The position numbers were made by a program, and so were the translations under genes. The notes beneath the pieces were generated by a model. That model worked only from the letters and a program-made list of their open reading frames with translations. It made no database searches and had not been told where the DNA came from. DNA of 64,000 bases from Flavobacterium sp. Its GTDB lineage: Bacteria; Bacteroidota; Bacteroidia; Flavobacteriales; Flavobacteriaceae. The stretch covers positions 1,307 through 65,306 of the forward strand of contig NZ_JAQVCH010000014.1 of assembly GCF_028689845.1 (NCBI RefSeq), given 5' to 3'. Shown here one piece after another: positions 6,774 through 16,996 of this stretch (positions are counted from its first letter, which is position 1; the number at the start of each line of letters is the position of its first letter).

Positions 6774-7169
6774 ATGAATTTACAAAAATTAAAAACAATT
6801 TCAATTGTCCTAACTTTAGTTTTAGGCAGTATTTTTACCCTATCAAGTTTTACTTTGGGCGAAGAAAAAATGGTAAACGATTGTCAGGAGTATGACCACA
6901 TTACAATTGATGACGTGATGAACTTATCACCAGAGGGCTATGAACAATGGGTTCAAAAATCAGGACTGTTTGACGGCACGTATTATGAGGCAATTATAGA
7001 ATTCTCAGACGGAACCAGAGGTAAATTGTTTAAAGGAGGAAACTCAGGACGTTACTTTGTTGAAGACTCAAGCGGAACAAATTATTACTACAATAGTTTG
7101 CGTTCATCCATTAGGGCATTATACCTTTATAAGAAATACGGTTGCCTTAGTACGAAATACCGCTTGTAA
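6774..7169 (+). CDS. Small secreted hypothetical protein
   Basis: 131-aa ORF with an N-terminal signal peptide. It has a TAATG stop/start overlap with the next gene. Confidence 0.5.
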   Translation: MNLQKLKTISIVLTLVLGSIFTLSSFTLGEEKMVNDCQEYDHITIDDVMNLSPEGYEQWVQKSGLFDGTYYEAIIEFSDGTRGKLFKGGNSGRYFVEDSSGTNYYYNSLRSSIRALYLYKKYGCLSTKYRL

Positions 7170-8026
7170 TGCAATTGATCGATGTACTTGTTTCGTTGGT
7201 TCTGTTTCTAATAATGCTGGGAATAGGTATCTCGTTATCATTGGAGGATATAAAACTTGTTTTCCAAAAACCAAAGGCTCTTATTGTGAGTTTGTCATCA
7301 CAGATGATTTTACTCCCAATACTAGCCTTTCTAATTGCCAATGTTTTTGACATCCCCAATTACCTCAAAATTGGTTTAGTGATTTTAGCCGCAAGCCCCG
7401 GAGGAACAACCTCAGGGTTTATTACCTATCTTTTTAAAGCCAATGTTGCTCTCTCAATAACATTAACAACGTTCAATTCAGTCCTAACCTTGTTTTCAAT
7501 TCCTCTTATTGTGAATTATGCCATTAGGAGTTTTGAACAATCTGAGGCAATCTTCACACTGCCTTTTTTTGATACGTTAAAGGAAATAGTTGTCCTTACC
7601 ATTATCCCACTATCCATTGGTATTGTTTTTAAAAGGATAAACAATACGTTGGCTTTACAATTAGCCAAAGTAATGAAACCACTTATGATTGTTTTGTTAG
7701 GTGTTGTTTTTTTATTAAAATTTTTTGGAACCGATGGTAAATCAGGAATAACCCAACAAGAAATAACTGAGATTTTACCATTTGCTATCCTATTAAATTT
7801 TTTATGTCTTTTAGTTGGCTACAGCGTTGCCAACTTCTTTTCATTAGATATCAATGATTGCATCACCATTTCCATAGAATCAGCAGTTCACAATACTACG
7901 TTAGCTTTTTTAATCTCTGGAACACTTTTACACAATGATGATTATGGAAAGGTTTCTCTAGTGTATGCCATGTTCTCATTTTGGACAGCACTACTTTTTT
8001 GTGCAATAATCAAAAAAATCAATTGA
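7169..8026 (+). CDS. Bile acid:sodium symporter (BASS/SBF-like) family transporter
   Basis: Polytopic 285-aa ORF with the family-typical LAASPGGTTSG motif. Ends in TGA. Confidence 0.75.
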   Translation: MQLIDVLVSLVLFLIMLGIGISLSLEDIKLVFQKPKALIVSLSSQMILLPILAFLIANVFDIPNYLKIGLVILAASPGGTTSGFITYLFKANVALSITLTTFNSVLTLFSIPLIVNYAIRSFEQSEAIFTLPFFDTLKEIVVLTIIPLSIGIVFKRINNTLALQLAKVMKPLMIVLLGVVFLLKFFGTDGKSGITQQEITEILPFAILLNFLCLLVGYSVANFFSLDINDCITISIESAVHNTTLAFLISGTLLHNDDYGKVSLVYAMFSFWTALLFCAIIKKIN

Positions 8027-8122
8027 ATTTGTAACTCGTTTGATTAAAATCATTAAAGAATTGATTTTGTGAAGCAATTTCATATTACTAGTTAAGTTGT
8101 TCTTTATATTTATTCTATTCAA

Positions 8123-14563: not shown

Positions 14564-14793
14564 TACGCGATTCTATTTCATGATAAATATTGTTTTTTAA
14601 CTTCATCCAAAGAAACAGTAGGCTCATTTATTCTTTCTAATGCGGTTAAACTATCAAAAAAATCCTCCATGATTTCCTTTATACTATTGTTTTTTAAATC
14701 GAATACTACAGCCGTTTTTGTTCCATTTGGACTAGTTAAAAAATTGATTCATTTTCTGATTGATAAGGTTACAGGTAATGTTTTTGTGGACAT
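14563..14793 (-). CDS. Cognate antitoxin with in-frame TGA at codon 15 (14749-14751) and near the C-terminus (14578-14580)
   Basis: Translation is MSTKTLPVTLSIRK*INFLTSPNGTKTAVVFDLKNNSIKEIMEDFFDSLTALERINEPTVSLDEVKKQYLS*NRIA. With readthrough the TAA stop overlaps the toxin ATG as TAATG at 14561-14565. Confidence 0.65.
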
Positions 14794-15094
14794 TTGAATA
14801 AGGGAAAATTATAAATTAAAGTTAGTATATCTTTTTAAATTTTTTTAGCAAGAGATTTTATAGTTTACTTGAATTGATAAAGAAATAATACATAATTCAT
14901 AATACTTTAGGGGGGTTCTTTATAAATACATTTTGAGCAGTGAACTACTCTCTTTAAAGAGCAATATACTTTTTTAATTGTAGCAACATCTACTTGATTG
15001 TTTCTTAGTTTAAGAATTGATACATTTGTAACTATTCTACCATAGTTAGTAGAATTATAATTTAATTTCAGGGATATATTTAATAAATACTGTG

Positions 15095-16996
15095 ATGGGA
15101 AAACCTTTCGAAGAGGAATTAAAAAAGATTGATTATACTTATCAATGGGCATTAAAAGTTCCTGTTGAAGAAATGGATTTTATAAAAGACATTTTACATG
15201 ATAAATCTCTTTTAGTTGTTGGCTCTGGGGGGTCTACTTGTAGTTGTTGTTTGTTTTCTATGCTGCAACAGAAAAACGGAAGAACAGCAAATTATATTAC
15301 CCCCTTAGAGCTTCAATATGTTAAAAACTCTATCGATAAAAAAACAAGTGTTTTTTTTATTAGTGCTAGTGGAAAAAATACAGATATTTTATTTGCATTT
15401 GATACTGCTTTGAAGCAAGAACCTTCAAATATTGTCAGTTTTTGCATGAAGAAAGGCTCGCTTTTAAGCAATAAAAGCTCAAATTATTCAATTTCTAAAA
15501 CAATTGAATTAGATAATCCAGTTGGTAAAGATGGTTTTTTAGCAACAAATTCTACGATAGCTTATTTTACAATTATCGCTAGATTTTTTGATAATAATAG
15601 AAATATTGAAACCTTAATCCCTTCTGATGAATTCTTAGAAGAAGTTAGATTATTTTCTTTGTCTTTACATAGCGACTTTACTGTAACAGTACTTTACAGC
15701 GGTTGGAGTAAACCGGTTGCATTAGATATAGAATCCAAATTTTCTGAAGCTGGTCTAGGTAATGTGCTGTTGACGGACTACAGGAATTTTGGTCACGGGA
15801 GGCATAATTGGCTCGATAAGAAAAAAAAGCAGTCAGCTATTGTTGCACTGATTACAGAAGAAGATGAAGCTTTAGCAGATATGACCCTTAATTTAATTCC
15901 TAGCGAAATTCCTATCTTAAGAATAATTTCTGAATATTCAGAGTCAAATGCAAGTTTGGACTTGCTTTCCAAGTCATTTTATTTGGTAAATCAGGTTGGT
16001 AAAATTAAAGGGATTGATCCCGGAAAACCCGGCGTTCCTCCATACGGTAGTAAGTTGTATCATCTTAAGTACTCAAAAACGTTTGTCAAAAAAGATATTT
16101 TGAATAGTAAAGTAAAAAATGCTATTAGAAGAAAGTTTGGTGATACAGATAACATATCGAATGAGATTTTTTTACCTTTATGGATTAAGTCCTATAATAC
16201 TTTTGTCTCAAATATAAAGAAAACGAAATTTAAAGGAGTTTTGCTGGATTATGACGGTACTTTATGTTCAACTGAAGAAAGGTATTTAAACCCCAGAAAA
16301 GAAATTATTAATAAATTAGAGTTCTTTTTAAATAATGGTATTACGGTAGGGGTTGTAACAGGACGTGGAAAATCAGTAAGGGAAACTTTGCAGAAAGTAA
16401 TTAATGTAAAATATTGGGATAAATTTTATATAGGATACTACAATGGTGCTCAAATTGGTACTCTTAATGATAATCTATTGCCTATAAAAGATAATGATCA
16501 AATGCTTTTTAATGACATTGAAAGAGTATTAAAAAACGAAGAATTAGTAGGCCAGTTTGTCGATTTAGAATTGAGAAAAGGTCAATTGACTGTTATTGTG
16601 AAGGAGAATAAAAATTCTCATATCGTTAAGAGTATCATGAAAGATATTTTAATAAGATTATATCCAAATGAAATTCAAATTTTAGAATCTAGCCATTCAA
16701 TAGATATTATTTCTACGTTTACAACTAAAAACTCGATTATTCAATACATTAGAATGGTGTTGAACGACAAAGAAAAAGAGTTTTCTTTTTTATCAATTGG
16801 TGACAGAGGAAAATGGCCAGGAAATGATTTTCAATTGCTTTCAAATAGATTTTCTTTAAGTGTAGATGAAGTTTCTTCTGATCCTCACACGTGTTGGAAT
16901 TTATCCTCTTTAGGAAACAACTGTGTTGAGACTACCTTAGAGTATTTTGATGCTTTTCAGGTTTTAGATTATGGTTTTTTTAAAATGAAAATTTGA
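15095..16996 (+). CDS. Fusion protein: double SIS (sugar-phosphate binding/isomerase) domain plus HAD-IIB-like phosphatase domain
   Basis: SIS motifs VVGSGGST and FFISASGKNTD. HAD motif I LLDYDGTLC, then VVTGRG, then GDRGKWPGND. 633 aa. Confidence 0.7.
   Translation: MGKPFEEELKKIDYTYQWALKVPVEEMDFIKDILHDKSLLVVGSGGSTCSCCLFSMLQQKNGRTANYITPLELQYVKNSIDKKTSVFFISASGKNTDILFAFDTALKQEPSNIVSFCMKKGSLLSNKSSNYSISKTIELDNPVGKDGFLATNSTIAYFTIIARFFDNNRNIETLIPSDEFLEEVRLFSLSLHSDFTVTVLYSGWSKPVALDIESKFSEAGLGNVLLTDYRNFGHGRHNWLDKKKKQSAIVALITEEDEALADMTLNLIPSEIPILRIISEYSESNASLDLLSKSFYLVNQVGKIKGIDPGKPGVPPYGSKLYHLKYSKTFVKKDILNSKVKNAIRRKFGDTDNISNEIFLPLWIKSYNTFVSNIKKTKFKGVLLDYDGTLCSTEERYLNPRKEIINKLEFFLNNGITVGVVTGRGKSVRETLQKVINVKYWDKFYIGYYNGAQIGTLNDNLLPIKDNDQMLFNDIERVLKNEELVGQFVDLELRKGQLTVIVKENKNSHIVKSIMKDILIRLYPNEIQILESSHSIDIISTFTTKNSIIQYIRMVLNDKEKEFSFLSIGDRGKWPGNDFQLLSNRFSLSVDEVSSDPHTCWNLSSLGNNCVETTLEYFDAFQVLDYGFFKMKI

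Follow-up and report, generated by a model that had tools for sequence, protein, structure and literature searches.

Bacteria of the Gracilibacteria (BD1-5) and Absconditabacteria (SR1) use genetic code 25, in which UGA specifies glycine. A different genetic code is usually held to act as a firewall that keeps genes from flowing out of a lineage, and the hosts of uncultured bacteria of the Gracilibacteria/Absconditabacteria type are mostly unknown. Here we analyze a 64-kb stretch of DNA from a Flavobacterium (contig NZ_JAQVCH010000014.1; the whole stretch is hereafter called the window), in which a gene for a large surface protein and the two genes of a toxin-antitoxin pair, all interrupted by in-frame TGA codons, lie in a defence island among genes that end in TGA. 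These recoded genes resemble those of code 25 in having TGA at conserved glycines, TAA ends and homologues in wholly recoded genomes, and differ from them in sitting in a TGA-as-stop genome with no tRNA-Gly(UCA) in view. On balance, it is probable that cross-code transfer into this island took place on at least two occasions, the large gene being a recent and silent arrival and the pair being older and kept by translation in which UGA is a sense codon.

Blocks of two codes within one DNA molecule are also known from recoded phages of standard-code Bacteroidetes and Firmicutes, in which codes 4 and 15 occur (Borges et al., preprint 10.1101/2021.08.26.457843), and from code-agnostic phages that candidate-phyla bacteria have in common with other bacteria (Liu et al. 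2023, PMC10746230). The likeness to the window extends to a standard-code host, to recoded genes that are silent until a suppressor is present and to a proposed link between Gracilibacteria and Bacteroidetes. The window segment differs in not being a phage, in the reading of TGA as glycine instead of tryptophan and in the absence of a suppressor tRNA or code-change operon; what is recoded here is the gene of a surface protein together with a toxin-antitoxin pair, both in a defence island of the chromosome. For the surface protein, the closest described relatives are modular surface proteins of candidate phyla (P0121-P0123 and loci L010-L012), which are built of an Ig-like stalk between a variable binding domain at the N-terminus and an SLH-like C-terminus. 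Over its C-terminal 900 residues the window protein is collinear with them at 36-54% identity, GGGGG linker and SLH region included, whereas the N-terminus consists of FG-GAP or BspA-like repeats in the relatives and of a DUF5122/delta-60 propeller in the window protein. For the pair, the closest described system is the RelE/StbE addiction module of the Spirosoma linguale plasmid pSLIN05 (Slin_7033/Slin_7034), which is of the same family, has a small upstream antitoxin gene overlapping the toxin gene, and shares 42-47% identity and the KKLKNF motif with the island pair. It differs in using the ordinary standard code, with GGN glycine where the island copies have TGA.

Three recoded genes in a standard-code chromosome

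When only TAA and TAG were taken as stops, three recoded open reading frames (ORFs) were defined in the window (Table 1). TGA makes up 27 of 103 glycine-position codons in the large gene and five of eight in the toxin-antitoxin pair, against none of ~900 in the rest of the window, where ~45 other real genes contain no in-frame TGA over ~900 GGN glycine codons. This contrast is far beyond chance. Under the host code, translation of the large gene would end at codon 26, and that of the pair should halt after 1 (toxin) and 14 (antitoxin) codons.

The host is a Flavobacterium with the standard code, in which TGA is a stop. The SerRS, fumarase and RseP proteins of the window belong to 90%-identity clusters shared with Flavobacterium sp. 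proteins, and sorting domains of the type IX secretion system (T9SS) are present in two window proteins. Six of the ~45 genes use TGA as their stop codon, and these TGA-ended genes argue for the presence of release factor 2 (RF2); its gene, prfB, was not found in the 64-kb window. The base following TGA shows no bias of the read-through type. The recoded genes are indistinguishable from neighbouring island genes in GC content and in GC content at third codon positions (GC3). The only tRNA that ARAGORN and Rfam found in the window is a tRNA-Asn, and no UGA-decoding tRNA is present in the 64-kb window, in 21 kb of a related island (L015) or in contig L003. A first-pass annotation, made from the sequence alone, had described the region as a mosaic of TGA-sense and TGA-stop genes, naming a TGA inside a hairpin, an ATGA overlap and several TGA-ended genes as marks of TGA-as-stop usage and reporting one tRNA (Asn) and no tRNA(UCA). 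All of this holds, coordinates and gene content included. Use of code 25 by the whole genome, which it had entertained as a refuting outcome, is not supported, given the lack of in-frame TGA in the ~45 other genes and the six TGA stops.

As a separate observation, four of the six TGA-ended genes lie near the recoded loci in the island part at 2.5-17 kb (window 2514-16996), and in the 47 kb to the right of it TGA stops occur only in the kinase/regulator pair at 53548-56099.

TGA as glycine and the donor lineage

Comparison with homologues indicates that TGA stands for glycine in all three recoded genes. In a four-way DNA alignment of the large gene and the top three homologues of its C-terminal part, TGA columns hold GGN or TGA and never TGG, and the true TGG columns hold W, F or Y. 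TGA and GGN also swap at the same repeat position among the paralogous DUF5122 repeats of the large gene, and in the pSLIN05 homologue antitoxin codon 15 and toxin codons 42 and 53 correspond to GGN glycine codons. Overall, glycine or TGA columns account for every aligned TGA codon of the toxin-antitoxin pair and for the majority of those in the large gene.

Other readings of the TGA codons were rejected. Tryptophan is at odds with the TGA columns that are never TGG and with the GGN glycines of pSLIN05. Random nonsense mutation does not fit internal stops that are all TGA, with no TAA or TAG among them. Selenocysteine was rejected by inference only, from the five TGA codons in two small genes.

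Besides a signal peptide, the large protein contains seven DUF5122/delta-60 beta-propeller repeats, Ig-like domains and an SLH domain at the C-terminus (Pfam, with TGA as Gly: DUF5122 E 2e-104, Bact_surface_Ig-like 1e-19, SLH 3e-10). A full-length search was dominated by delta-60 repeat proteins of Bacteroidota, numbering in the thousands, whose matches are confined to the N-terminal 28%. These propeller matches are uninformative on the donor, so the search was repeated with the C-terminal 900 residues, which gave only 35 protein matches, the top ones from TGA-recoded genomes. The best three (P0121-P0123) are 42-54% identical across that region; other named matches came from Absconditabacterales, Saccharimonas, Nomurabacteria and Patescibacteria. 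Housekeeping genes lie alongside P0121-P0123 and in loci L006-L012 and L036. In these donor-type contigs, ORFs of at least 200 amino acids nearly vanish under table 11 and return when only TAA and TAG are stops (in L036, 1.1 kb versus 14.9 kb in such ORFs). A scan of GTDB representative genomes added four recoded genomes that share this C-terminal architecture; in them, TGA makes up 19-28% of glycine codons, bracketing the 26% of the window; the window's own genome is not among the representatives, and both search patterns are GGN-encoded in the window.

The toxin leads to the same kind of genome. A search of representative proteins with the 42-residue TGA-free C-terminus of the toxin retrieved P0337, its nearest informative relative, which sits in a 190-kb recoded genome (L036) together with SecA, GrpE and transfer-messenger RNA (tmRNA). 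The antitoxin-toxin pair recurs in L036, where toxin codon 42 and antitoxin codon 15 are TGA as they are in the window. A metagenome scan for close toxin relatives found only distant standard-code ParE genes (32-44% identity, no TGA). Taken together, the homologies directly support a descent of the recoded genes from candidate-phyla lineages that read TGA as glycine (code 25, Gracilibacteria/Absconditabacteria-type), a source that the first-pass annotation had raised in one of its three options.

A toxin-antitoxin pair under purifying selection

On the basis of profile matches and gene layout, the two small genes are classified as a type II toxin-antitoxin module of the ParE/RelE family. With TGA as Gly, the toxin matches Pfam ParE_toxin (PF05016, E 4.8e-12, residues 6-92). 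The antitoxin gene lies upstream and its stop overlaps the toxin ATG (TAATG), a layout with the antitoxin first that is also found in L015, L036 and pSLIN05. The pair is on the minus strand, a detail that had not been given before.

The evidence on the age of the pair comes from L015, the contig of protein P0205 (run SRR3053202), which is a related island with the standard code and a T9SS gene. L015 and the window share, in the same order, a recombinase, a regulator, a 102-amino-acid gene, a DUF262-HNH gene and the toxin-antitoxin pair at 72-78% nucleotide identity, and carry different cargo between these backbone genes. At the amino-acid level the recombinase is 81% identical, the LytTR regulator 73%, the 102-amino-acid protein 71% and the DUF262-HNH protein 87%. 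The pair occupies the same place in L015 with both ORFs intact, at ~73% nucleotide identity, and four of the five window TGA codons (toxin 2, 42 and 53, antitoxin 15) are TGA at the same codons there; antitoxin codon 72 is AGA. Besides the pair, L015 contains no other recoded genes. Other DUF262-HNH contexts (L032-L035) held neither the toxin-antitoxin pair nor any other TGA-interrupted conserved ORFs.

Differences between the window and L015 are concentrated at third codon positions, with counts by position of 16/17/45 for the toxin (chi-square p 3e-5) and 13/7/38 for the antitoxin (chi-square p 8e-7), and this bias is present in long stretches both upstream and downstream of the TGA codons. 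The ratio of non-synonymous to synonymous substitution rates (dN/dS) against L015 is 0.066 for the toxin and 0.044 for the neighbouring DUF262-HNH gene. When neutral drift was simulated to 28% divergence, both ORFs of the pair stayed open in only 5e-4 of trials. These patterns of substitution directly support strong protein-level purifying selection on the reading frames of the pair, with the TGA codons in place, and the synteny is most simply read as a sign that the selection acted inside standard-code islands. A gene that its host is unable to translate would not be expected to stay intact in this way.

A structured region on the 3' side of the toxin gene is likewise shared. It contains an imperfect inverted repeat, CTTTGCACAAGGT-N3-TTGTGGAAAG, at 14059-14084, with a counterpart of identical arms at 11518-11543 in L015, and a bidirectional terminator-like hairpin at 14140-14165; the 141-nt region 3' of the toxin gene folds with z = -4.7. 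The inverted repeat was missing from every other fetched locus, including the recoded genome L036.

The large gene has a different history. It is absent from L015 and present only in the island of the window, and in simulations of neutral drift its probability of remaining open was 0.24 at 1% drift and 0.001 at 5%. Being still fully open, it is most likely a recent arrival that is silent. The first-pass annotation had offered, as one of three options, a very recent piecemeal transfer of the recoded genes. This applies to the large gene and fails for the pair, which is intact in L015 with four TGA codons at the same positions and divergence at third positions, and is therefore not a recent dead-on-arrival transfer. 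For the pair this leaves an old acquisition that was maintained, or two separate imports into one spot.

Within the large gene, we observed that the glycine codons of its middle quarter (codons 387-713, window 9284-10264) include no TGA (0 of 17, versus 27 of 86 elsewhere in the gene; Fisher p = 0.005). Matches from standard-code candidate phyla (Saccharimonas, Nomurabacteria) cover ~43% of the C-terminal query. This segment may have been recombined in later from a standard-code source.

Explanations for the mixture of codes

Under the explanation that we favour, a variable defence island of a standard-code Flavobacterium chromosome would capture genes from code-25 bacteria. One cargo slot would have received the large surface-protein gene, recently arrived and silent, while the other would hold a toxin-antitoxin pair that was already present in the common ancestor of the window island and L015. 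The pair would then have evolved under strong purifying selection with its TGA codons retained, probably kept because its translation is confined to places or times in which UGA is a sense codon, with UGA decoding presumably supplied in trans from outside the window. Candidates for the upkeep of the pair are conditional UGA decoding, an unlinked suppressor tRNA and repeated import.

Several points weigh against this explanation. The pair was found in two island copies only, and their synonymous divergence is saturated, which prevents the dating of any co-divergence with neighbouring genes. Low dN/dS would also result if related donors had supplied the pair to one hotspot on two independent occasions. 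With no UGA-decoding tRNA in the window, L015 or L003, the step that would explain the selection was not observed. The closest donor-type homologue of the large gene is only 54% identical, so that no donor genome was identified, and the three sequencing runs that link the junctions physically (see below) are possibly from related samples.

An unlikely alternative is that all three genes are very recent dead-on-arrival imports, the window and L015 having taken the pair independently from different code-25 donors at one hotspot adjacent to DUF262-HNH, with selection acting in the donors and no translation in Flavobacterium. The pair does sit at a boundary between backbone and cargo, to the right of which the two islands carry unrelated defence systems. 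The large gene shows that the island takes up code-25 DNA, the code-25 genome L036 has the same pair, and phages predicted to link Gracilibacteria and Bacteroidetes could act as a vector (PMC10746230). Nevertheless, one and the same cassette would have had to insert at an identical position next to each of the two DUF262-HNH genes with the closest relationship; three further contexts of such genes lack it. The nucleotide identity of the pair (~73%) is in line with that of the backbone genes (73-78%), and the 3' inverted repeat is common to both island copies and absent from the candidate-phyla copy. To stay open, moreover, both copies would have to be younger than ~5% drift.

A more far-reaching reading, which we put forward tentatively and hold to be unlikely, is that the pair is a code-gated defence module, silent under the host code and translated only when UGA is sense. 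Infection by a phage equipped with a UGA suppressor tRNA (code 4 or 25) could be the trigger. Another could be a code-25 epibiont or predator that takes up host DNA, in which case transient expression followed by loss would kill by addiction logic. Selection of this kind would explain why both the frames and the TGA codons were retained in standard-code islands. Among the phages predicted for Gracilibacteria, some are code-agnostic and are the target of CRISPR spacers from Bacteroidetes, phages being predicted to be common to both groups (Liu et al. 2023, PMC10746230), and there are phages that suppress TGA and have standard-code Bacteroidetes as hosts (Borges et al., preprint 10.1101/2021.08.26.457843). 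These phages offer a possible vehicle and a possible trigger.

It is improbable that an unlinked tRNA with a UCA anticodon, encoded elsewhere in the Flavobacterium or in the island lineage, provides a constitutive low level of UGA-to-glycine decoding under which all three genes are expressed. An island-encoded suppressor outside the window had been among the initial proposals, and a selected toxin-antitoxin pair makes such a suppressor more plausible than it first looked. The frames of the pair are under selection in standard-code islands, and TGA is a rare terminator (6 of ~45 genes), so weak suppression would be tolerable. On the other hand, no such tRNA occurs in the 64 kb of the window or the 21 kb of L015, and the host TGA stops lack tandem back-up stops; read-through would add 6 to 159 codons.

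We regard as very improbable that the segment is a stop-codon-recoded prophage or phage-like element comparable to the crAss-like, Lak or Agate phages that recode late genes. Block-wise mixed codes do occur in Bacteroidetes phages (Borges et al., preprint 10.1101/2021.08.26.457843), and the large protein has a faint match to a tail-protein FNIII domain. Against this, TGA is glycine and not tryptophan here, the neighbours are defence genes, and Pfam, ARAGORN and Rfam revealed no phage structural genes, terminase, suppressor tRNA or code-change genes in the region. No relative of the toxin was found in IMG/VR, nor one of the antitoxin in GenBank phages.

Physical linkage of the codes is directly supported by Logan contigs from three sequencing runs (SRR22315505, SRR15237803 and SRR24313857), which are unbranched, 100% identical to the window and span the junctions (Table 1). 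The least probable explanation is an assembly chimera of Flavobacterium DNA with that of a co-occurring code-25 bacterium, an option raised at the outset, for which the apparently draft or metagenome-type source contig of 66,089 bp and the position of the code switches in short intergenic gaps could be cited, but which is made very unlikely by the 100% matches of L003, L004, L005 and L018 across three runs, by L004 and L005 each running from the recoded loci into the SIS/HAD gene and crossing three of the four junctions in one contig, by the native Bacteroidota gene between the recoded loci and by the toxin-antitoxin pair at the same place in L015.

The locus is physically verified code-25 DNA within a free-living standard-code bacterium, and forms a direct genomic tie between a Flavobacterium and bacteria of the Gracilibacteria/Absconditabacteria type. 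A selected imported operon raises the testable question of whether and when some Bacteroidota decode UGA, and should such decoding prove conditional, defence islands would contain a new kind of switch in the form of code-gated genes. In the literature searched, we found neither code-25 genes described from the chromosome of a standard-code bacterium nor selection reported on toxin-antitoxin genes interrupted by stops.

Architecture of the island

The region from ~3.5 kb to the tRNA-Asn at 32.9 kb is a defence island, which contains a large serine recombinase, a GmrSD-like DUF262-HNH protein, a PRTase, an ORC/CDC6-like protein, a CARF6-like protein and a type IIG restriction-modification enzyme.

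Table 1. Features of the window and contigs that link them (positions in the window).
Feature	Position	Strand	Remarks
TGA-ending gene	2514-3332		TGA inside GGGCTTC...GAAGCCC hairpin, followed by T-run
Island backbone common with L015	3561-6639	+	Large serine recombinase (3561-5102), helix-turn-helix (HTH) gene, LytTR response regulator (5809-6639, TGA stop); Pfam
SBF-family transporter gene (left flank)	7169-8026	+	Standard code, TGA stop; Pfam SBF E 1.7e-31; 14 GGN, 0 TGA
Recoded surface-protein gene	8123-11995	+	1290 codons, 27 in-frame TGA (Gly), 0 internal TAA/TAG, TAA stop
102-amino-acid gene	12096-12404	-	No TGA, TAA stop; weak DUF960 match only; conserved backbone
GmrSD-like DUF262-HNH endonuclease gene	12574-13917	+	Standard code, 31 GGN, 0 TGA, TAA stop
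Conserved structured region 3' of toxin gene	14059-14165	-	Inverted repeat and hairpin
Recoded ParE/RelE-family toxin gene	14276-14563	-	95 codons, TGA at codons 2, 42 and 53, TAA stop
Recoded antitoxin gene	14563-14793	-	76 codons, TGA at codons 15 and 72, TAA stop
SIS/HAD-domain gene (right flank)	15092-16996	+	Standard code, TGA stop one base before next start codon
tRNA-Asn	32870-32944	-	ARAGORN and Rfam
TGA-ending gene	53548-55347		ATGA overlap with next gene at 55344-55347
TGA-ending gene	55344-56099		Stop 3 residues past LytTR domain; adjoins convergent gene
Contig L003	1-8226		SBF gene into first 104 nt of recoded gene (200 nt beyond SBF gene)
Contig L004	9115-15779		Three code switches in one contig
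Contig L005	10845-17362		Three code switches in one contig
Contig L018	11508-12619		

Homology directly identifies the DUF262-HNH gene between the recoded loci as a native Bacteroidota gene. Its domains match GmrSD_N (PF03235, E 2.5e-25) and HNH (PF01844, E 3.3e-8), the combination of a GmrSD-like type IV restriction enzyme, and PADLOC classified it as NsnA-like. The protein is 87% identical to P0205 of L015 and 69-77% identical to many Bacteroidota proteins, and the named relatives are all Bacteroidota (Ginsengibacter, Subsaxibacter, Flavipsychrobacter and Chitinophagaceae). The first-pass annotation had counted about 30 glycine codons in this gene, none of them TGA, and had pointed to the alternation of recoded and standard genes around it; the exact count agrees and so does the alternation. 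The code-25 genes fill two variable cargo slots that flank a native module of the 102-amino-acid and DUF262-HNH genes, which is a simpler description than a piecemeal mosaic. Neither flanking direct or inverted repeats, att-like sites nor an adjacent integrase were found around 8.0-15.1 kb, and scans for promoters and terminators gave nothing above chance.

To the right of the pair, an apparent defence operon at 15092-22156 begins with the gene of the SIS/HAD protein and further encodes a PRTase-CE, an ORC/CDC6-like ATPase, the CARF6-like protein (PADLOC E 2e-112) and a PfkB-like kinase. At the equivalent position, L015 carries an Ssp-like cluster (DUF4007, BrxC-like, PAPS reductase and GmrSD_N). 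A gene for a NUMOD4-domain protein (31392-32555) lies ~300 nt from the tRNA-Asn, and the two may mark the right end of the island.

Annotation of recoded loci in public databases

The ORFs of L009 and L007 (GCA_964458335.1, CAYWIJ010000004.1) are open only with TGA as sense, and this metagenome-assembled genome is labelled at NCBI as 'uncultured Candidatus Peribacteria bacterium'. The Peribacteria phylum is usually described as using the standard code. Either the label of GCA_964458335.1 is loose or the recoded clade is broader than its name suggests.

Public gene calls also differ between L004 and L005 over identical DNA, a TGA-sense code having been used on one and the standard code on the other. 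The TGA-sense calls give products of 959, 95 and 76 amino acids, stored with W at TGA, whereas the standard-code calls give fragments only; database proteins from such loci are mistranslated or missing.

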